The position numbers were made by a program, and so were the translations under genes. From contig CAWHEU010000022.1 in the NCBI GenBank assembly GCA_963828465.1, positions 480,001 to 544,000 on the forward strand: DNA of 64,000 bases. Reading direction: 5' to 3'. The DNA is from an uncultured Acidobacteriota bacterium. GTDB taxonomy: Bacteria; Actinomycetota; Acidimicrobiia; Spongiisociales; ZC4RG35. Shown here piece by piece: positions 2,683 to 38,272 of this stretch; positions within the stretch are counted from its first letter, which is position 1; each line of letters opens with the position of its first letter. A model generated the notes under the pieces. That model made no database searches. It saw only the letters and a list, made by a program, of their open reading frames with translations, and had not been told where the DNA came from.

Positions 2683-4229
2683 GGCGACTCCGGTCGAATG
2701 TCGGTGACAGCATGCGCGATGAGGTCCATGACCGCGTCCTCATGGATGGCCTCGCCTTGGAGCTCGCCGACGACCATTCCTTCCTTGAGGACGAAGACCC
2801 GATTCGATCCCTCGATTACATCCTCGAGTTCTGAAGAGATGAGGATGACCGCTAGACCGCCGACGGCCAGCTCGTCGATAAGGGCCTGGATCTCGGCCTT
2901 GGCCCCGACATCGATTCCCCGGGTGGGCTCGTCGAGGAGCACGACATCGGGGTCGTTGCACAGGAGGCGCGCCAGCAAGACCTTCTGCTGGTTGCCTCCG
3001 GAGAGCTCGCCGACGCTTTGATCCAGATCGGTCACCTTGATCTGAAGGCGATCGACGTACTTGCCGACGATCTCCTCCACCTTGGAGCTCGATACGAAGC
3101 CCCATTTCGCGACCGAACGGCCAGCTGCCAGGGTGATGTTGTCCTTTACTGACATGGTGGGGACGATCCCCTCGGCCTTCCGGTCTTCGGGGAGCAGGCC
3201 AACTCCCTCGGAGACGGCGGCAGCGGGGGAGCCACGCTTGAGGACGACTTGATTCACCTTGATCTCACCATCGTCGAGACGCAGCAACCCAAAGATCCCC
3301 TGAACCGTTTCACTTCGCCCTGATCCCAGGAGGCCGGCAAGCCCGACCACCTCACCAGCACGCACATCCACGCTGACATCAGAGAGGACGCGGTGACGGC
3401 TCAAGCCTGACGCGGCGAGCACCGGTTCGCCGATGCTGCGGCCCTCGATGTCGAACGCGGTCTTACCGGAGGAACGGACGTCTTGGACGTCACGGCCCAA
3501 CATTGTGGCGACGAGCTCGAGCCGGGTGATCTCGGCAACCGGTCCGGTATGGACTCTGCGACCGTCACGTAGGACGGTCACCTGATCGCACAACTCGAAT
3601 ATCTCATCGAGATCGTGACTCACGTAGAGCAGGGCGACGCCGTCGTCGCGGAGGATTCGAATCACCCGAAACAGCTGCTCGACTTCGTTGGGCTCCAGAG
3701 ACGAAGTCGGTTCATCGAGGATCACCACCTTCGCGTCGGTAGATACAGCGCGGACGATGGCGATCATCTGTTGGACGGCGACCCCGACCGAGCCGAGCGG
3801 TCGTCGTTCGTCGACAGATATGCCATATCTACGGAGAAGTCGGGCCGCATCTGCGTTCATCTTCTTGACATCGACGAGGCCGAAACCACGCATCGGCTCC
3901 CGGCCGAGGAGGAGGTTCTGGGCCACGGTCATAAACGGCTCGAGGTTGATCTCCTGGAAGGTGGTGCTGATGCCTGCCTCCCACGCTTGGCGGGGACCGG
4001 CAAATGAAACCGGCTCGCCGTCCAGGCGGAGCTCGCCCTCATCGGCGCGATACACCCCGTTGATCAGCTTGATGAGGGTCGACTTGCCGGCACCGTTCTC
4101 ACCGACGAGAGCGTGAACCTCCCCTCGGTAGATGTCTAGAGAGACCGCATCGAGGGCAATGACTCCCGGAAACCGCTTGGTGAGATCGATCGCTTGGAGC
4201 GTCGGTTCGCCACGGGTCACGGGAGTCAC
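2679..4229 (-). CDS. Sugar ABC transporter ATP-binding protein (tandem NBD, RbsA/YtfR-like)
   Basis: GENGAGKST, LSGGNQQKV, LDEPTRGIDVGAK. Confidence 0.93.
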   Translation of the reverse strand: MTPVTRGEPTLQAIDLTKRFPGVIALDAVSLDIYRGEVHALVGENGAGKSTLIKLINGVYRADEGELRLDGEPVSFAGPRQAWEAGISTTFQEINLEPFMTVAQNLLLGREPMRGFGLVDVKKMNADAARLLRRYGISVDERRPLGSVGVAVQQMIAIVRAVSTDAKVVILDEPTSSLEPNEVEQLFRVIRILRDDGVALLYVSHDLDEIFELCDQVTVLRDGRRVHTGPVAEITRLELVATMLGRDVQDVRSSGKTAFDIEGRSIGEPVLAASGLSRHRVLSDVSVDVRAGEVVGLAGLLGSGRSETVQGIFGLLRLDDGEIKVNQVVLKRGSPAAAVSEGVGLLPEDRKAEGIVPTMSVKDNITLAAGRSVAKWGFVSSSKVEEIVGKYVDRLQIKVTDLDQSVGELSGGNQQKVLLARLLCNDPDVVLLDEPTRGIDVGAKAEIQALIDELAVGGLAVILISSELEDVIEGSNRVFVLKEGMVVGELQGEAIHEDAVMDLIAHAVTDIRPESP

Positions 4230-10647: not shown

Positions 10648-12075
10648 TTGTCTACCTTTGCCGAGCTCGGCCTGCCCGAGCCCTTTACCGAGATGCTCGC
10701 CCGTCGTGGCATCACCAGCCCCTTCCCCATCCAGGCGATGACCATCCCCGATGTCCTCGCCGGACGTGACGTCGCCGGCCGTGCCCCCACCGGGTCAGGC
10801 AAGACTCTTGCGTTCGGGCTGCCCGCGCTCGCCCGCCTAGAGCGTGGCCGGAGTCGCCGGCCCCGGGGCTTGATCCTTTCCCCGACGAGGGAGCTGGCCG
10901 ATCAGATCTTCACCGAGCTCCAGCCGCTGGCGAAGGCGGTGAGTCGCTCCATGGTGGCCGTATACGGCGGTGTCTCCTACGGCCCGCAACGTTCGCGCCT
11001 CCAGCAGGGGATCGACCTGCTGGTGGCATGCCCGGGACGTCTCGAGGACCTGATCGACCAGGGAGTCGTAGACCTTCGGGAGGTGGATCTGGTGGTAGTC
11101 GACGAGGCGGACCGGATGGCGGACATGGGATTTCTCCCTGCCGTCAAGCGAATCCTCGACATGACGTCATCCGAGCGCCAGACGATCCTGTTCTCGGCGA
11201 CGCTCGACGGAGACGTCGCCGTGTTGACCCAGCGGTACCAGCGCGACCCAGTTCGACACGAGTCCGAGCTACAGGACGACGACATCGCGAATGCCGAGCA
11301 TCATTTCTGGAAGGTGGAGAGGGCGGATCGCACCGCTCATGTCGCCAGGGTGGTCACTTCTGCCAGCCCCACGATCGTGTTCACCCGAACCCGGCATGGA
11401 GCTGATCGGCTGGCCAAGCAGCTGGCGGGCGCCGGAGTCACGGCCGTTGCTCTGCATGGTGGGCGGTCACAGCAGCAGCGGAATCGTGCGCTCAAGGATT
11501 TCGCCAACGGGCGCAGCCAGGCCCTTGTGGCCACCGACGTGGCGGCCCGGGGCATTCACGTCGAGGGGGTTGCCAGCGTGATCCACTTCGATCCGCCCGA
11601 GGACGAGAAGACATATGTGCACCGTTCGGGGCGGACCGCCCGGGCCGGCGCAAGCGGGATGGTGGTCTCACTCGTCGATGGGAGCCAGGTGAAGAATGCC
11701 CAGAGGATGCAACGGGCCCTGGGTCTGGATTCCGCAATGGTGACAGGACCCGCGCCTCGTATGCCCAAGGAGCGAGTTCCCTCGACGTCGAGACCTGAAC
11801 ATCCACGCCGATCGGGCGACAACGAGTCGATCTACGTGGGCAACCTGCCGTTCAGCGTCACCGGGGAGGATCTGGAACGGATCTTCGCCAAACACGGAAG
11901 CGTCCACTCGGCCACAGTCGTCACCCATCGGGACTCGAGGAAGTCGCGTGGTTTCGGCTTCGTAGAGATGACTCCCAAGGCATCGAACGCCGCCATCGCA
12001 GCTCTCGACGGCTCGAGTGTCTCTGGACGTCGGTTGAAGGTGAGGGCAGCCAGGCCCGGAGTCGCCCACCCCTAA
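10648..12075 (+). CDS. DEAD-box RNA helicase with C-terminal RRM
   Basis: PTGSGKT, PTRELA, DEAD, SAT, HRSGRTARAG; C-terminal IYVGNL...RGFGFVEM. Confidence 0.93.
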   Translation: MSTFAELGLPEPFTEMLARRGITSPFPIQAMTIPDVLAGRDVAGRAPTGSGKTLAFGLPALARLERGRSRRPRGLILSPTRELADQIFTELQPLAKAVSRSMVAVYGGVSYGPQRSRLQQGIDLLVACPGRLEDLIDQGVVDLREVDLVVVDEADRMADMGFLPAVKRILDMTSSERQTILFSATLDGDVAVLTQRYQRDPVRHESELQDDDIANAEHHFWKVERADRTAHVARVVTSASPTIVFTRTRHGADRLAKQLAGAGVTAVALHGGRSQQQRNRALKDFANGRSQALVATDVAARGIHVEGVASVIHFDPPEDEKTYVHRSGRTARAGASGMVVSLVDGSQVKNAQRMQRALGLDSAMVTGPAPRMPKERVPSTSRPEHPRRSGDNESIYVGNLPFSVTGEDLERIFAKHGSVHSATVVTHRDSRKSRGFGFVEMTPKASNAAIAALDGSSVSGRRLKVRAARPGVAHP

Positions 12076-31776: not shown

Positions 31777-32154
31777 GTGCTGGCCGCGTTGAACATCGTG
31801 GCGATCGGTCTCGGCCTCGGAGCCGGGAGCCTCGCCGCCACCATTCTCGCTCTGACACTGGGCGGGCTACTGACGGTCGCCGGTGTGGAGGGAGGGGCCG
31901 ACATCGGCCTTGTCGTAGGAGTCGTGCTCGGATTGGCCGTGGCGGGCTGGGTCTCGGGTCAGATGGCCCGGCACTCCGAACGATTCCATGGCGCGGTGAC
32001 AGGATTGCTCCTGGCAGGGCTCATCGTCGTTGTGGCCAGGCTGGGAGGCAGCCCCGCGCCGACCGTGTCGGTGTTGTGGCTGGCACTGGTCGCTGCGGTC
32101 ATCGCCGGTTTCACCGGCTGGCTGGCCGGTCGACGAAAGCGATCCGGCCCGTAG
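31777..32154 (+). CDS. Four-TM hypothetical membrane protein
   Basis: Hydrophobic ORF with host-like codon usage. Confidence 0.65.
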   Translation: MLAALNIVAIGLGLGAGSLAATILALTLGGLLTVAGVEGGADIGLVVGVVLGLAVAGWVSGQMARHSERFHGAVTGLLLAGLIVVVARLGGSPAPTVSVLWLALVAAVIAGFTGWLAGRRKRSGP

Positions 32155-32160
32155 AATGAT

Positions 32161-32509
32161 GTAGTGAGCCCGCTGGGCGACCGCGGTCGAGAGATCGAGG
32201 AAAGTCCGGACTCCACAGGGCGTGGTGCTGGGTAACACCCAGGCGGGGTGACCCGACGGAAAGTGCAGCAGAGAGCAGACCGCCGATGGCCCGAGAGGGC
32301 ACAGGCAAGGGTGAAACGGTGAGGTAAGAGCTCACCAGCGTCGCAGGCGACTGCGACGGCTCGGCAAACCCCACCAGGAGCAAGGCCAAGCAGGGACGTC
32401 GGCGGCCCGTCGATCAAGTCCTGGGTAGGCCGCATGAGCGCATCGGCAACGGTGCGCCCAGATGGATGGTCGTCCTCGACAGAATCCGGCTTACAGGCGG
32501 ACTCATTAC
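32161..32509 (+). ncRNA. rnpB: RNase P RNA (bacterial type A)
   Basis: GAGGAAAGTCCGGACTC, GGAAAGTGCAGCAGAGAG, GGGTGAAACGGTGAGGTAAGAGC, GGCAAACCCCACCAGGAGCAAGGC, ACAGAATCCGGCTTAC; 5'/3' P1 pairing. Confidence 0.97.
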
Positions 32510-32547
32510 GCCAAACCCCCTCTAACCAGGGGGTTTGGCCTTTTCTA
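32478..32547 (+). repeat. att-like direct repeat, copy 1 (rnpB 3' end plus terminator hairpin)
   Basis: GACAGAATCCGGCTTACAGGCGGACTCA-tta-CGCCAAACCCCCTCTAACCAGGGGGTTTGGCCTTTTCTA; 67/70 identical to 35648-35717. Confidence 0.93.
32510..32545 (+). terminator. rnpB intrinsic terminator (duplicated at 35680-35715)
   Basis: GCCAAACCCCCT-CTAACC-AGGGGGTTTGGC-CTTTTC. Confidence 0.8.
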
Positions 32548-32720
32548 GACGTTCTCCGAAGCCGCCATTGCACGAGGATTCAACAAGAGCGCCGGTCCAA
32601 GCTGAGAATCGACTGCTTCGGTGGTCCGCTGGTCATCGTCAGGCCAGAGGTGCGAGTACGTGTCGAGCGTCTCCTGCGCGGTGGCATGGCCCAACCGTCG
32701 CTGCACGACGGTCACTGAAC
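32545..32720 (-). pseudogene. C-terminal remnant of a tyrosine recombinase/integrase
   Basis: SVTVVQRRLGHATAQETLDTYSHLWPDDDQRTTEAVD (LGH box II plus catalytic Tyr); N-terminal part absent; stop codon lies in the repeat end. Confidence 0.85.
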
Positions 32721-32788
32721 AAGGGTGGGGCAAGCCCCGGTGACTGTAAGAGGACCTCACTTCTGTCACTGCCAGTCCATACGTTCCG

Positions 32789-32899
32789 ATGATGACCGAT
32801 TGTCCGAACTGCGACCACCCGGTGATCTATCACAACGAGCATGGATGTTTTGCCGCACCGGATTGTGACTGCACCGAACAGTCCGACCGCGCAAATTGA
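32789..32899 (+). CDS. 36-aa Cys/His-rich putative metal-binding peptide
   Basis: MMTDCPNCDHPVIYHNEHGCFAAPDCDCTEQSDRAN; below the ORF-track cutoff. Confidence 0.5.
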   Translation: MMTDCPNCDHPVIYHNEHGCFAAPDCDCTEQSDRAN

Positions 32900-33063
32900 G
32901 ATGGTGCGGGCGGCGGCCTGACCGACGCGAGCAAGGGAAGGTTCGCGAAAAGTCGATGGACCCCAAACGACGCCATGAGCGATTGCATGGGTGAGGACTC
33001 CCTGGGCGTTCAGGTCCTCGAGGAAGGTCCCGGTCTCACCAACTGGCCGAGGGCGCTTCCGGG

Positions 33064-33110
33064 ACGACGAGACCCCCTGGGTTTGATGTGGGCCAGGGGG
33101 TCTGTCGTTT
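33064..33110. repeat. Hairpin H1 (related to H2)
   Basis: ACGAC-G-AGACCCCCTGG...CCAGGGGGTCT-GTCGT-TT. Confidence 0.75.
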
Positions 33111-33223
33111 ACCCGCTTCGCTCCGAACGACTGTACCCGGCCACGCCGGGCCGATTGAGTGGGCAGCAATAAGTGTTTGGTGCGGGGGGCGCCTTGTGCG
33201 TCCGCTACGAACCCGCACAAATC

Positions 33224-33282
33224 GACAACCCCCCAAAGCTCGTCGAATCACGTCAGAAACGGCCAGCCATTGGGGGGTTCTC
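33224..33282 (+). repeat. Internal repeat R1 (59-bp imperfect palindrome)
   Basis: GACAACCCCCCAAAGCTCGTCGAATCACGTCAGAAACGGCCAGCCATTGGGGGGTTCTC. Confidence 0.85.
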
Positions 33283-33308
33283 TCTTGCGTGATCCCTAAT
33301 CTCCGCTG

Positions 33309-33836
33309 GTGGATCACTTCTTTGGAGAAGACCTCCTCTTTGAAGTGCCCGTTTATCGGATCTCCTACGACGAGTTTCACAAGGAGTTAAAAGACACCAT
33401 TCTGGAGACCGCAAGGAACATGGAAGGCTCAGACTCATGGGGTCAGCTTCCTCACGCGGAGATCCGCGAGGAAGCTGAGAGATGGGCGCTGCGAAGGTAT
33501 GGTCGCCCGTACTGGTACAACGAGATGATCGGTGTCATCCGCATATACCAAGACGGCGGATCGATCAAGGGTCAATTCTGGGGTCAGCCTCAGAAGTCAT
33601 TTCGTCGGAACTTCCGCCATTACAACTACCGGGACCGGGGTCGTGTCATCGAAATCCATGAACCGCCAGGTGACCTGACCTCGATGGATGTGTATGAGGA
33701 GCTGAGGGATGACCTTCGTGGCCTCACTCGAAAGGGTGGAACACTCGAGCGCAGACACGTCGATCTGAGCACGTTTGAGCGGCTTGGGCCCTACATCGAT
33801 TGGTTGAAGGTGTTGGGCTGGCGACAGGGCACCTAG
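33309..33836 (+). CDS. Orphan cytoplasmic protein (island cargo)
   Basis: 175-aa ORF starting 26 nt after R1; codon usage unlike the host. Confidence 0.75.
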   Translation: MDHFFGEDLLFEVPVYRISYDEFHKELKDTILETARNMEGSDSWGQLPHAEIREEAERWALRRYGRPYWYNEMIGVIRIYQDGGSIKGQFWGQPQKSFRRNFRHYNYRDRGRVIEIHEPPGDLTSMDVYEELRDDLRGLTRKGGTLERRHVDLSTFERLGPYIDWLKVLGWRQGT

Positions 33837-34081
33837 GTCCGGGCCCGCAGCACCGTAATGAAGAGGCCTACCGGGGGCCCGTGATGTTGGACGATTGGCG
33901 ATGCGTGCAGTGGTTGTCACGATGTCGAGGCCCCAACAAACCAGTTACGAAGACGCGTCGATCCTCACGGGTTAGGCACGACCAAAGTTTCGCGCTTTCG
34001 TTTTCGCGCCGTGGAAATTGGGAAAGTGAGTGCCCGAATAGGAGTGCAGGGCGTCCAAGTCCGGCGAGCTCCGTTCCACAC

Positions 34082-34132
34082 ACGACGAATCCCCCTGGAT
34101 TTGGGGGAGGCTCCAGGGGGATTCTGTCGTTT
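34082..34132. repeat. Hairpin H2 (related to H1)
   Basis: ACGAC-GAATCCCCCTGGA...TCCAGGGGGATTC-T-GTCGT-TT. Confidence 0.75.
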
Positions 34133-34199
34133 CCCTCCGTTGAGATTGCACCGAGGAGGACCGAATGGCTGGATATCAGGACGGAGAGCTGGCGGCAAC

Positions 34200-34706
34200 G
34201 TGATCGTCCTCATCCGCCTCTGGGCTTTTCTCCGCTACGTCTTGGCGTTGGCCGGGTTTGTGTGCCTCCTCCTCACGGTGAGCACTGTCACCGGGTGGTT
34301 CACCGTGTCCGCCGAGGGCGCGCAGCTCGAGTGGTATTGGCTGCTCGCCGCAGCGTTCATGCTCGGCTTCCTCAGCACCGTCGGTGACACGCCATTCCCA
34401 GGTGTCTCCCGCGATGGACCTCGCCAGGTGGCTCCGGATCGGCTGGCTCCCAGTCTCGGTCATCCCATTCCGGAAGTTATCCGGGCGATGCTTGTCGCAG
34501 GAGTTTGGGGAGGTCTCACCTACCTGCTTGGCCTCCATCCGATCGTGATTTTTGCTGTAGCGGCCCTCGTCGGGATCGGCTTATCACTCCGCCGACAGAG
34601 GAGAGGGCGGCACGGTGTAGCAGCTAGAGACAGGCTGAGGAGATCCCAAATTCAGGACCGCTCTGAAACAGGGCCGAAGCCAATGATTGGGAGCTGGTGG
34701 CCATGA
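34200..34706 (+). CDS. Orphan four-TM membrane protein (island cargo)
   Basis: Four hydrophobic segments; GTG overlaps the TGA of a 12-codon ORF (34165-34203, GGAGG RBS), so either translational coupling or an indel. Confidence 0.6.
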   Translation: MIVLIRLWAFLRYVLALAGFVCLLLTVSTVTGWFTVSAEGAQLEWYWLLAAAFMLGFLSTVGDTPFPGVSRDGPRQVAPDRLAPSLGHPIPEVIRAMLVAGVWGGLTYLLGLHPIVIFAVAALVGIGLSLRRQRRGRHGVAARDRLRRSQIQDRSETGPKPMIGSWWP

Positions 34707-34759
34707 GGCAATCCCCGTCGGGGGGTTCTCTATTCGTGACATGTGGAATCGAAAAAAGA

Positions 34760-34803
34760 CTCGTCGCATCACGTCAGAAACGGCCAGCCATTGGGGGGTT
34801 CTC
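34760..34803 (+). repeat. Internal repeat R2
   Basis: 43/44 identical to 33239-33282; a short partial copy (AATCCCC-GTC-GGGGGGTTCTC) lies at 34710-34730. Confidence 0.88.
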
Positions 34804-34842
34804 AGCCTTCGCGGTATCTGTCGCACGGAATAACTTGATCGC

Positions 34843-35335
34843 ATGAACGAATGGCTGACGGCCCTAGCCATCCTCGCTCCCCTGCTTGGAGTCTGGATTG
34901 GCGGCGTGCTTGAACGTCGCTCCCGATCGGAAGAACGAGAGCGATTAGAGCGGTGGGAACTCGTTAAAGACTCTTCGCGCATCCTGGGACGAGTGGGCCT
35001 CCTGCTGCGAACGAGCGACCCAAAGACCTATCACCTCTTCGTCCTGCCAGGGAGTGACTCTGCAACGAAGATCACGGAGAAGAGCGACGAAGCCGGCGCG
35101 CTGGCTCCGATGATGTCGGAGCTCGCGGTCCGATGGCCAGCTGCTGCAGACGATCTTCTCATCCTCGAGAAGGGAACTCGGGATGCTTGCAATCAACCTC
35201 GGCCTGGTGGTTCTCACCTCAGACGATCCTGAGAGCGACCAACTGGACCCGGCGATTCGTTCGCACGGAAAGGCGACAGCGGCTCTGGATCGACTCACGA
35301 AACGTCTGCACAGTCGCGAGCCAGCAATCAACTAA
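34843..35335 (+). CDS. Orphan protein with N-terminal TM helix (island cargo); indel near 35173
   Basis: MNEWLTALAILAPLLGVWIGG..., continuing in the shifted frame ELGMLAINLGLVVL...HSREPAIN* to TAA 35335. Confidence 0.65.
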
Positions 35336-35470
35336 GGCCAGCATTGCATTCTTTGAGAGTCCGATGCCGGCGAAGTTTTTTCGCCACCCTCTCCGGCCTT
35401 CCCGAACTCGACTCTCCAGGTCCTAGTCTTTCGTTGACCACATCAACCGGCTGCGGCCCCTGTCCGGTGT

Positions 35471-35500
35471 TCTGGAAGCGGCCAGCCCATTGGGGTTCTC
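35471..35500 (+). repeat. Internal repeat R3 (degenerate)
   Basis: TCTGGAAGCGGCCAGCCCATTGGGGTTCTC vs R1/R2 TCAGAAACGGCCAGCCATTGGGGGGTTCTC. Confidence 0.7.
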
Positions 35501-35514
35501 TGTCCGACGCTCCC

Positions 35515-35634
35515 ATTCAACAGATATTCAACAAGAGGCCGTTGAATCAGGTAGAAACGTGTAGAAGCAGGTAGAACCGTCGGGATGGTGTTTCCCCAGG
35601 TCACCGCCGGAAAACGGCACGTCTTCCCAGGTCA
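35515..35634. promoter_or_regulatory. Candidate integrase arm-type / accessory-factor binding sites
   Basis: ATTCAACA at 35515 and 35526, inverted GTTGAAT at 35541, GTAGAA x3 at 10-bp spacing (35551/35561/35571), CCCAGGTCA x2 (35595, 35626); ATTCAACAAGAG also at 32578. Confidence 0.6.
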
Positions 35635-35647
35635 GAAAGGTGCCGGT

Positions 35648-35717
35648 GACAGAATCCGGCTTACAGGCGGACTCACCTCGCCAAACCCCCTCTAACCAGG
35701 GGGTTTGGCCTTTTCTA
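35648..35717 (+). repeat. att-like direct repeat, copy 2
   Basis: Duplicate of the rnpB 3' end plus terminator; differs only at cct vs tta. Confidence 0.93.
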
Positions 35718-35924
35718 AGCCTTACGCGGTCCCCGTGAACCGGAGTGCGGGCTACTGGTCGGCCTGGTATGTCTGCCGCGTTGGATGTTTTCGGGTGGCA
35801 CTGGGGCGGCATATGTTCCGCACGATTCGGACATAGCGCCAACGTGCATCCATGGCGATTTGGCGTTCGCTCTGATAATCCACTCGCCGCAATGCCGACA
35901 CAGGGCGTCGGGTTTGTTCGACAT
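35715..35924 (-). CDS. Small phage-like CxxC...WxH...C protein
   Basis: MSNKPDALCRHCGEWIIRANAKSPWMHVGAMSESCG; stop lies in the repeat end. Confidence 0.45.
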   Translation of the reverse strand: MSNKPDALCRHCGEWIIRANAKSPWMHVGAMSESCGTYAAPVPPENIQRGRHTRPTSSPHSGSRGPRKA

Positions 35925-36033
35925 CGGTTCCGTTATCGGTATCGAGCGGGAATTCCTGTACCGCGGCGGCCCGGCGTGCGGATCGGGCGACGAATCCCCC
36001 GCTGATATCGACCGTCAAGGGTTCGGTTCGCCT

Positions 36034-36432
36034 CTACGACGAAATCGCGGCGACGGCGCTGACCTCGATCAGCGCACCGGGCACTCCTAGCGCGGCCACC
36101 CGAGCGCCTACAACCGGCGGGGTCGCTCCCGCCAACTCGGCGGCTGCGACCGGATAGGCCGCATCGAGGTCGACGCCGTCGACGAACAGAACCGTCATCA
36201 TCACCAGGTCCTGGACGCTTGCGCCGGACGCGGCCAGCGCGATGTGCAGGTTCTTCATCACCTGTTGGGTCTGGGCGGCGACGTCGTCGCCACCGACGAG
36301 GGCCCCATCGCCGTCGACGGCGTTCTGGCCACCGATGTATACGGTCGTAGCGCCCGGCGGCACGACCGCGACGTGCGTGAAAGCTGGGGATTGCACAAGT
36401 CCTTCTGGCCGAAGCAGTGACGTCTGCGCCAT
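36034..36432 (-). CDS. RidA/YjgF-family protein
   Basis: FTHVAVV, VYIGGQ, QTQQVMKNL, LIEVSAVA; GAGGAG RBS. Confidence 0.87.
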   Translation of the reverse strand: MAQTSLLRPEGLVQSPAFTHVAVVPPGATTVYIGGQNAVDGDGALVGGDDVAAQTQQVMKNLHIALAASGASVQDLVMMTVLFVDGVDLDAAYPVAAAELAGATPPVVGARVAALGVPGALIEVSAVAAISS

Positions 36433-36584
36433 GCGTCCATCTCCTCAGTCCCGACCGTCGGCCGGGTCATTAAGGGCACGATGCTACGCGTCGGCGACCG
36501 GCTCACAGGCACCTGCTCCGGGTCTCACGCAGGACTGTGCACCGGCGTGCCCAAGCTCCTTGCGCGGCTCCCTTCGACCAGGGG

Positions 36585-37367
36585 CTAGTGCGGGAGATCG
36601 AGCTCTACCCACACGGCGGCGTGGTCGCTCAGCTTGCCGTCGAGCCAGTCTTCGCGGTAACCGCACCGCGCTGCCCGCGCCGATTGGGACGCATACACGT
36701 GGTCGTAACGGCGCCGCTTCGGGTGGCGTCCTCTTGGGATGTAACTCGTTGGATTCTCCGCAAACCCATTCAGCCACCGGTAGGCGTCGCTGAGGTCGTG
36801 GTCGCGCAAGCCCCACAGGACCGCACCCTCGGCTTGCTCCCAGCGCTCCGCCAGCTCAGGGTGGCTCGACGCCCAAGTCTCGATCGACCCGTCCTCCTGC
36901 TCTGCCTGTGGGGTGTTGAAGTCGCCGCACAAGATCCGCGGCCCGTGCGCTGGGCGGGCGAGCCGAGCGTAGATGCCTTCGAACGTCTTGAGCTTCTCGA
37001 CCGGCCGGCTCACGCCGGGAGGCAGGTGCGCATTGTGGATCTCTAGGGCGGTGTTAGGAATAGACACCAGCGCTGAAAGCACCTTTTCGGGATAGGGGAT
37101 CTCGCACCCGCCCTCGGGCAGCACTCCGAGCGGCCACCGGCTCGCGATCAGATTGGCATAGCGTCGGCCGGGGCCGATCAGGTGTGTACTGCTCGCGATT
37201 GCAGTTAGACCGGCGTCCGTCAGATGCTTTCGCCAGCCGGGCTCAGACCCATGGGTGACCTCTTGAAGGCAGACGAGAAGCGGCTGCTCGCCGAGAAGCG
37301 CTTAGGCCTGACGCCCGAGGGTGGCGTCTACCCGACCATTGACGTTCCAAGAGAAGAGCTTGAGCAC
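36585..37367 (-). pseudogene. Endonuclease/exonuclease/phosphatase (EEP) family gene with in-frame TAA at codon 22
   Basis: LKLFSWNVNG...RQA*ALL...CLQEV...CGDFNTP...YDHVY...SDH; stop at 37302-37304. Confidence 0.75.
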
Positions 37368-37591
37368 GCTACCGCCTATGCAGTCGCCCCCATCCTCGCC
37401 GATCTGACGCTATGCATTTCCATGCTGCCGACAATCGGATTTCTGTCCGAGAATGCACGACGCGGGCCGGACCGCAGCGGATTCCTGAAATCCAGCGGGT
37501 TCCAGGCGCCCCGGCATAGCCTGAATGTCGTCTGAAACCTTCCCGGCCGCTCGTGGGTCGAACCAGCGGAACCAAGAGGAGGATTGCTCGT

Positions 37592-38272
37592 ATGGTCGTC
37601 AACAAGTACCTGGCCGAGTTCCTGGGGACCTTTGTCCTGGTTTTCTTCGGGTCCATGGGGATCCTCGCCGTCGGTGGTGCCGTTGGAGCCGCCGAGATCG
37701 TTGCGATCTCATTTGCCTTCGGGCTTGCGCTTCTGGCCGGCATCTGGGCCGTGGCGCACATCTCCGGAGCTCACTTCAACCCAGCCGTGACCCTGGCGAT
37801 GCTGATCGACGGCCGGACTTCGTTCGGAGACGCGATCGGGTATTGGGTCGGGCAGTTCGCCGGTGCCACGGTCGCCTCGCTCGTGGTCATGGCGGCTACC
37901 AGCCGCGAGGCAGTCGGGGGGACGGTTACCGGTTACGCGAACCTGACCACCGGGATCATCATGGAGATAATCCTCACCGCCGTCTTCATATGGATGATCA
38001 TGGCTGTCACCAGGACGGGTGGGAGTCATGCCGCTGCCGGCATCGCCCTGACCCTGGTCGGGGTCCATTTGGCCGGCATCCCGTTCTCCGGGGCGTCGGT
38101 GAACCCGGCTCGTTCCTTCGGGCCGGCGGTGGTTTCGGGCGATTTCGACCAGCTCTGGGTCTACATCGTGTTCCCGCTTGTGGGTGGGCTAGTCGCATGG
38201 GGCCTGTACCGGCTGTTCCCAGCGGCAACGCCCTCGGCGGTGGACACGGTGGAAGTCGTGACCGAGACCTGA
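37592..38272 (+). CDS. Aquaporin (MIP family, AqpZ-like)
   Basis: AEFLGT, ISGAHFNPAV, SVNPARSFGPA. Confidence 0.92.
   Translation: MVVNKYLAEFLGTFVLVFFGSMGILAVGGAVGAAEIVAISFAFGLALLAGIWAVAHISGAHFNPAVTLAMLIDGRTSFGDAIGYWVGQFAGATVASLVVMAATSREAVGGTVTGYANLTTGIIMEIILTAVFIWMIMAVTRTGGSHAAAGIALTLVGVHLAGIPFSGASVNPARSFGPAVVSGDFDQLWVYIVFPLVGGLVAWGLYRLFPAATPSAVDTVEVVTET

Follow-up and report, generated by a model that had tools for sequence, protein, structure and literature searches.

Positions 32478-35717 of the window, a 64,000-nt stretch of contig CAWHEU010000022.1 from an uncultured Acidimicrobiia bacterium (genome G000), are very probably the decayed remnant of a site-specific integrative element whose integrase family targets the 3' end of rnpB, the gene for the RNase P RNA. 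This reading is carried by a direct repeat of the rnpB 3' end, an integrase remnant that adjoins one copy of it, empty sites in relatives, the association of a whole integrase clade with rnpB, and conserved arms. Insertion by tyrosine integrases into the 3' end of tRNA and transfer-messenger RNA (tmRNA) genes is textbook knowledge, and an earlier sequence-only reading of this DNA had proposed that the same strategy is applied here to rnpB. The empty sites, the clade association and the non-tandem pattern of the repeat support that proposal, although the copy in the window is a dead relic.

A full-length rnpB gene (RF00010, bacterial RNase P class A) is placed by Rfam at 32165-32509 on the plus strand (296.9 bits, model positions 1-367), and it is the only copy in the 3.07-Mb genome G000. 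Its 3'-terminal 32 nt are part of the left copy of a 70-nt direct repeat, attL (32478-32547, plus strand), which recurs as attR at 35648-35717 on the same strand with a spacing of 3170 nt and 67 of 70 positions identical (96%). According to the Rfam alignment, the repeat begins with the conserved ACAGAAUCCGGCUUA stretch and continues through the 3' strand of the P1 helix into a 4-nt unpaired tail. All three mismatches (UUA versus CCU) sit within this tail, so the perfect core is the 28 nt from 32478 to 32505. An identical hairpin of 12 pairs followed by a T-run forms the terminator in both copies (32510-32539 and 35680-35709); attL combines core, rnpB tail and terminator, and attR carries the displaced rnpB 3' end with its terminator. 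The sequence-only reading had described exactly this duplication of the rnpB 3' end and terminator 3170 bp downstream, and a genome-wide search adds that G000 (3.07 Mb) holds these two copies and no third. The target gene stays whole, with its 3' end directly repeated at both ends of the insert, and GC content is 55-60% between the copies against 65-69% outside. A sigma-70-like promoter match lies at 32130-32157, 8 nt 5' of the rnpB start; it is the sole match within 32000-36000, no more than shuffled sequence yields.

An open reading frame (ORF) of 74 aa on the minus strand (32545-32769) points into the left repeat copy, and its stop codon is the last three bases of that copy. The 74-aa remnant has no match in Pfam, PF00589 included; it matches the PHROG integrase families phrog_1 (E 2.3e-5) and phrog_216 (E 1.1e-4). 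A search for longer proteins related to the remnant returns 84 matches, among them the 372-375-aa integrases P0005-P0007, P0009 and P0010, to which it is 66-68% identical over 89-96% of its length; across the 375-aa integrases found, identity to the C-terminus is 63-68%, and full-length relatives match PF00589 at E 4e-24. When P0005 and P0006 are aligned to the whole window with tblastn, residues ~297-375 alone align, at 32778-32542. PHROG matches, 375-aa relatives and tblastn together bear out the suggestion of a tyrosine-integrase C-terminus directed into the left copy, here delimited as 32545-32778 on the minus strand (residues ~297-375 of a 375-aa protein), its stop overlapping the end of attL. 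The remnant is in frame from CSVTVVQRRLGH...DTYSH through the stop, and both LGH and the TYSH tyrosine are kept. The HELRHHYAS box that precedes it is unreadable, everything further upstream is gone, and the window contains no complete integrase with its catalytic residues. Because just residues ~297-375 are left and the HELRH box is unreadable, the window copy is a relic and not a working element.

Four further relatives of the remnant (P0001-P0004, 75-83% identical) are themselves truncated, keeping the last 85-130 residues (~60% or less of the integrase). Two of these start at RRAADQVGI, fused to unrelated N-terminal sequence that is sigma-70 region-4-like in one protein and resembles the upstream helix-turn-helix (HTH) gene in the other. 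Positions near residues 285-300 are recurrent breakpoints, in the truncated relatives as well as in the window and in locus L095.

The integrase family to which the remnant belongs is tied to rnpB well beyond the window. P0006, a 375-aa relative of the remnant, was used to fetch 50 loci (15 from genomes, 34 from metagenomes and one viral), and nhmmer with an rnpB profile (E <= 0.01) was run on all 50, with an additional Rfam scan of the 15 from genomes. rnpB is present in 17 of the 50 loci and convergent with the integrase in 16 of those 17. Its 3' end lies 29-925 nt past the integrase stop in these 16 loci, and within 29-94 nt in 13 of them. Classed by best-segment identity to P0006, loci at 57% or more have rnpB downstream in 11 of 13 cases and loci at 39% or less in 0 of 16. 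The intermediate class (40-53%) has rnpB downstream in 5 of 21 loci (L060, L072, L076, L084 and L096, at 46-53%); at least five of these 21 loci stop within the integrase and so give no answer. The full-length integrases beside rnpB that the sequence-only reading anticipated therefore exist. Genes for tRNA-Ala, Thr, Val and Glu occupy the position of rnpB in L066, L070, L091 and L092, respectively, four loci of the class at 39% or less, in a tRNA scan that covered 26 of the 50 loci.

Phylogeny gives the same grouping. A tree was built from 23 integrases of at least 280 aa with no stop, 15 of 38 extracted rows having been excluded as broken or short. The nine intact integrases next to rnpB (L056, L060, L071, L072, L073, L074, L076, L084 and L096) all fall within one group of 15 rows (support 95/91), and the tRNA-adjacent rows lie outside it. 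An order-wide protein search over an even draw of 401 genomes, for which the best 150 matches are listed, returns mostly integrases that are 35-43% identical among those listed. Identity of at least 50% among these best 150 matches is reached in five genomes: G000, G577 (the L057 contig), G646 (the L061 contig), G564 and G535. The copies in G577, G646 and G564 (at least 60% identical; G564, locus L110, is an unpublished genome) are broken or truncated and adjoin rnpB, and G535 has an intact integrase at 52% identity, with no rnpB on its 4-kb contig.

Relatives of the same genus carry the empty site. From 24 genomes drawn, 20 have a full rnpB match, and the rnpB region was fetched for all 20. 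With blastn, the upstream flank of the window is found in 20 of 20 loci and the island interior in 0 of 20, except for a 131-nt arm match in G015. An aquaporin gene lies downstream of rnpB in 19 of the 20 loci; the contig of G013 stops 30 nt after rnpB. The gap between rnpB end and aquaporin start, computed from blastn coordinates, is 108-173 nt in nine genomes (G004, G005, G007, G008, G010, G014, G016, G018 and G024), 280 nt in G023, 548 nt in G019, 1.1-2.4 kb in eight (G001, G002, G003, G006, G009, G011, G012 and G015) and 5044 nt in the window; G018 is an unpublished genome, without which the short-gap count is 8 of 18. The empty site that had been sought in relatives is thus at hand in nine of them. 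G012, the closest relative (upstream flank 97% identical), has rnpB, ~470 nt of its own sequence, a RidA-like gene and the aquaporin gene, and lacks both the island and the phosphatase-family gene that follows it in the window. Given the gap sizes of the relatives and the layout of G012, rnpB adjoining aquaporin is taken as the ancestral order and the gap as a hot spot.

Conserved sequence flanks the cores. The P' arm (32567-32584, plus strand), inside the integrase 3' end, holds a pair of 7-nt motifs, a degenerate ATTGCAC and ATTCAAC, whose starts are 11 nt apart; this pair occupies the equivalent place in L056, L057, L067, L075, L079 and L088. The P arm (35503-35647, plus strand) contains ATTCAAC twice (35515 and 35526), its inversion GTTGAAT (35541), GTAGAA three times with 10-nt spacing (35551, 35561 and 35571) and CCAGGTCA twice (35596 and 35627). 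It is kept in other relics: the ~140 nt ahead of attR are conserved among the window, G015, L061 and L079 (mean column identity 78% over these four loci). Each element has a pair of 7-8-nt direct repeats ~11 nt apart in its P' arm, that is, in the integrase 3' end, and the motif varies by integrase lineage. ATTCAAC and close variants occur in the window, L056, L057, L061, L067, L075, L079 and L088, ATTCCGC in L071, ATTCCGC/ATTCAGC in L095, TGACACAA in L073, AGTCCGCA in L084, CTGTCCTCA in L096, CAGTACCCA in L076 and ACGGACAC in L072. The P arm repeats the P' motif in the window's group and in L096. These paired motifs are probably arm-type integrase sites.

The window island has a close counterpart in the same genus. 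G015 contains a second rnpB 3' end 1486 nt after the first, with a metallophosphoesterase gene between the copies. Its attL end matches the attL of the window, including 16 nt past the repeat (95% over 119 nt), its right end and P arm match window positions 35516-35715 (80% over 201 nt), and the plain rnpB end of G019 aligns collinearly with its attR and the adjoining flank (87% over 418 nt). G015 holds a sister relic of 1.5 kb. Short relics with truncated integrases also occur in L061 (28-nt repeat, ~1.7 kb) and L079 (57-nt repeat, ~2 kb).

Intact elements are found elsewhere. On the metagenome contig L096, the rnpB 3' end near 11114 and a second stretch at 3039-3067 form a perfect 29-nt repeat. 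The 8.1 kb between the two copies encode an intact 359-aa integrase, immediately preceded by an HTH gene, and also contain genes for a PriCT_1/AAA_25 protein, a WhiB-like protein and a Phage_capsid protein, and ROK, amidase and ABC-transporter genes lie outside the repeats. These 8.1 kb bring together integrase, repressor-like HTH, primase-helicase-type replication and capsid genes, and for L096 alone, not for the cargo of the window, an island of the phage-satellite or phage-inducible type may be considered. L073 has a TrwC relaxase, L072 a DUF3631 protein and L076 an HTH_17 gene before the integrase; an HTH_3 gene stands directly upstream of the integrase in L056, L057, L071 and L072. Because the gene sets of L096, L073, L072 and L076 differ, the rnpB integrase clade is common to several kinds of element. 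L078 shows an attP-like order of motif pair, core, motif pair and integrase, with no terminal overlap in the contig that would indicate a circle.

The recombination itself and the order of events would have run as follows. Since the element would bring along both a copy of the rnpB 3' end and a terminator, integration would leave rnpB whole. Recombination at the core would form attL from the rnpB body, the core and the element's tail and terminator, beside the integrase, and would push the former rnpB 3' end to the far side of the element as attR. The tails agree with this polarity: attR CACCTC is one change from the CACCAC of relatives and attL CATTAC is two changes from it, so attL, the more distant of the two, fits as the element-derived side. 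In G000, the integrase would later have been cut to its last ~75 residues, and the truncation would leave an island unable to move by itself, which keeps both cores, both arms and three cargo ORFs.

Several findings weigh against the reading of 32478-35717 as an element remnant. Two loci in the class of at least 57% identity depart from the rule: L064 has no rnpB, and L068 has rnpB 2.5 kb upstream on the same strand, its contig stopping 33 nt after the integrase piece. Six of the 15 rows in the tree group lack a full rnpB beside the integrase; three of these six (L058, L078 and L080) have just an rnpB-3'-like fragment directly after it. G000 contains no full-length member of the rnpB integrase clade, its sole other match being 28% identical. 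Four soil-metagenome runs that contain the island show no excised circle, no empty-site read and no joint across the island; stored as short contigs, none of which bridges a repeat, these runs are silent on excision. Every locus in the evidence base comes from a metagenome assembly or a metagenome-assembled genome (MAG), with no isolate among them. Finally, the terminator at attR is of the element type and not a separate native one, which one simple integration event does not explain without a further assumption.

The terminator has a history that might supply this assumption. Its part of the repeat is identical in both copies, and terminators of the same type stand beside integrases in distant hosts (AAACCCCCTCTAACCAGGGGGTTT). 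G003 has the same terminator after an uninterrupted rnpB, in a stretch that matches the window attR plus 4 nt (97% over 74 nt). Variants of the hairpin follow rnpB in 7 of the 20 same-genus genomes (G003, G006, G012, G015, G019, G023 and G024); six of the seven are those with flanks most similar to the window, G024 is eighth, and the other genomes have unrelated hairpins. The ancestor of this subclade might have hosted an earlier element of which, after decay, the terminator remained, with the present island entering the rebuilt gene. The reverse order, in which the element family captured a host terminator of this lineage, is possible as well.

Among the alternatives, the island could be non-autonomous yet mobile, that is, excised, moved or extended in trans by the integrase of an intact relative. 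In favour of this, the 28-nt core is perfect in both copies and the motifs of the P arm have stayed intact; the integrase-poor relics (the window, G015, L061 and L079) keep the ~140-nt P arm at 78% though their cargo differs; and the same class holds intact relatives. The cis-mobilizable elements of streptococci are an analogue of an integrase-less island mobilised in trans. Mobility of this kind is nevertheless unlikely for the window island: G000 is without a clade integrase, one P' arm motif is degenerate (ATTGCAC), the four runs, in their short contigs, show no joint or circle, and the conservation of the arm may just reflect recent decay.

The continuity of the assembly bears on a second alternative, an artefact in which a foreign contig was joined into the MAG through the shared repeat of rnpB 3' end and terminator. 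Island-interior sequence recurs at 99% identity or more in contigs of the four runs, which come from two studies; this independent presence favours the island, although the run that contains most of it may be the source sample. The ends of these contigs fall precisely on the repeats (X2 record 10 begins at 32509, X1 record 7 at 35648). No listed piece bridges a repeat, no contig in the four public runs links rnpB to the right flank, and the contigs of several relatives stop just after rnpB. Because the run contigs break at the repeats, contiguity in G000 rests on the MAG assembly together with the same layout in four independent assemblies. The order rnpB, core, integrase end ... P arm, core, flank was assembled independently in G015, L061, L079 and L096, and the junction of rnpB with the integrase end is present in 16 separate contigs, which makes a misjoin very improbable. 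The sequence-only reading had named, as its own alternative, a plain duplication of the rnpB 3' end without any integrase. Precedents exist in E. coli K-12, where three to four tandem units of 113 nt overlap the 3' end of rnpB, and in G028, which has a 152-nt tandem duplication of its rnpB 3' end (L055, G028:C22, 1168-1346). Such a duplication is scarcely credible here: 3170 nt separate the copies, an integrase remnant and conserved arms lie between them, and the copies correspond to the ends of elements whose integrases are intact.

If the island is an element remnant, a wider picture suggests itself, which taken as a whole falls somewhat short of an even chance. A dedicated integrase clade in Acidimicrobiia might use rnpB as a regular landing site throughout the lineage and travel on elements of various kinds, namely a satellite-like island with a capsid gene, a mobilizable element with a relaxase, and small relics. 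Across a whole subclade of the genus, successive rounds of integration and decay may have permanently replaced the tail and terminator at the 3' end of rnpB; seven genomes with flanks close to those of the window have the element-type hairpin as their 'native' terminator. Integrase-less inserts with cores and arms may also be shuffled in trans, making the gap between rnpB and aquaporin a cassette-like hot spot.

Within the island, three ORFs on the plus strand make up the cargo. The first (33309-33836, 175 aa) is a real gene, as indicated by its homologues, codon composition and predicted structure, and has no assigned function. Besides its own entry it has nine homologues (52-56% identical), none with a Pfam domain; its GC content by codon position is 0.61/0.39/0.66, and its structure is predicted with confidence (pLDDT 80.9), with no Foldseek match at E <= 0.001 and no Atlas feature match at 0.9 or above. 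Two candidate ORFs follow, one hydrophobic and of up to 231 aa (34011-34706), the other of 129 aa (34843-35232); both come from the ORF list, and family searches, Pfam and PHROG among them, return zero matches for either. The cargo had earlier been called orphan, a description that stands for the 231-aa and 129-aa ORFs, which belong to no family, and falls for the 175-aa ORF with its nine unannotated homologues. GC content at third codon positions (GC3) is 0.61-0.66 in the cargo against 0.78-0.80 in the flanking genes.

A 44-nt repeat recurs within the island on the plus strand, with a first copy at 33239-33282, 26 nt upstream of the 175-aa ORF, and a second (98% identical) at 34760-34803, 39 nt upstream of the 129-aa ORF. 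Weaker copies lie at 34715-34734 and, as a degenerate copy just before the P arm, at 35475-35495, so that the cargo looks split into units bounded by the repeat. No copy is found outside the island in G000 or in any fetched locus, and no fold common to the two main copies was found.

The right flank of the window (36034-38272) comprises a RidA-like gene (36034-36432, minus strand), an endonuclease/exonuclease/phosphatase-family gene (36585-37124, minus strand) and the aquaporin gene (37553-38272, plus strand). The first two are host-like in GC3 (0.79-0.80), and just the RidA-like gene is common to G012. In other members of the genus, the gap holds an SBF/ACR3-type transporter (G001, G002 and G011, with ArsR in G011), a GNAT gene (G006) or a PNPOx-like ORF (G003). 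The inserts of G001, G002, G003, G006, G009 and G011 were considered as kin elements and set aside, since their cargo differs and no tie to the integrase could be found; tblastn with full-length integrases detects no integrase remnant in the 20 same-genus rnpB loci at E <= 0.01.

Other duplications near rnpB are of a different make. The rnpB 3' end recurs ~1.0 kb downstream in G001 and ~0.7 kb downstream in G011, and each pair encloses one unannotated ORF; these duplicates have a different terminator type, lack ATTCAAC arms, and may be relics of another element family at rnpB. Two pattern matches in G042, an unpublished genome, were rejected as an island, since both contigs end in rnpB and represent an assembly split. 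In G389, the rnpB 3' motif is matched twice, once forward and once in reverse. Contigs often start or stop within a few hundred bases of rnpB (G002, G013, G016, G024, G027, G028 and G031), which fits repeats or strain variation at the site.

Few parts of bacterial RNase P RNA are as conserved as the ACAGAAxCCGGCUUA stretch, and an integrase that recognises it would have landing sites in many hosts and would be of interest for integrase-based genome engineering. Where rnpB serves as a phylogenetic marker, it matters that an essential ribozyme gene can owe its 3' tail and terminator to a mobile element. Islands at rnpB would be missed, or filed as intergenic, by finders keyed to tRNA and tmRNA genes. 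A full-text literature search found no paper on rnpB as an attachment site, though supplementary tables or the TIGER/Islander database may list such islands. Islander is restricted to tRNA and tmRNA genes (PMC12424338). The attB of phage phiEf11 in ffs, the gene for 4.5S RNA, is presented as a novel non-coding-RNA site, and that paper's introduction gives tRNA, tmRNA and csRNA genes as known RNA-gene targets, with rnpB unmentioned there (PMC12540744).

Several known systems invite comparison. As in tRNA and tmRNA islands, the integrase adjoins the RNA gene in convergent orientation, the element is bounded by direct repeats of the gene's 3' end and supplies a replacement for it, and relatives carry it sporadically, empty sites being present among them; the same integrase family even has more distant members beside genes for tRNA-Ala, Thr, Val and Glu in the same geometry. 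Unlike those islands, the element targets the RNase P ribozyme gene and also brings a terminator, and its core consists of the ACAGAAUCCGGCUUA stretch and the P1 3' strand instead of a T-arm or acceptor stem. The 113-nt repeats of E. coli K-12 likewise place copies of the rnpB 3' end and terminator downstream of the gene, but they are arranged head-to-tail with no genes, integrase or arms between them, whereas 3170-nt spacing and an integrase remnant separate the copies here. Actinobacteriophage integrases, such as those of Gordonia phage Schmidt and Arthrobacter phage TripleJ, belong to the same family, with full-length alignment and the domains PF00589 and Phage_int_M, yet are at most 36% identical among the 12 matches listed. 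Phage phiEf11 shares with the rnpB elements a phage-type integrase acting on a small, essential, stable RNA gene other than a tRNA gene, but the RNA is a different one and the host belongs to another phylum (PMC12540744).

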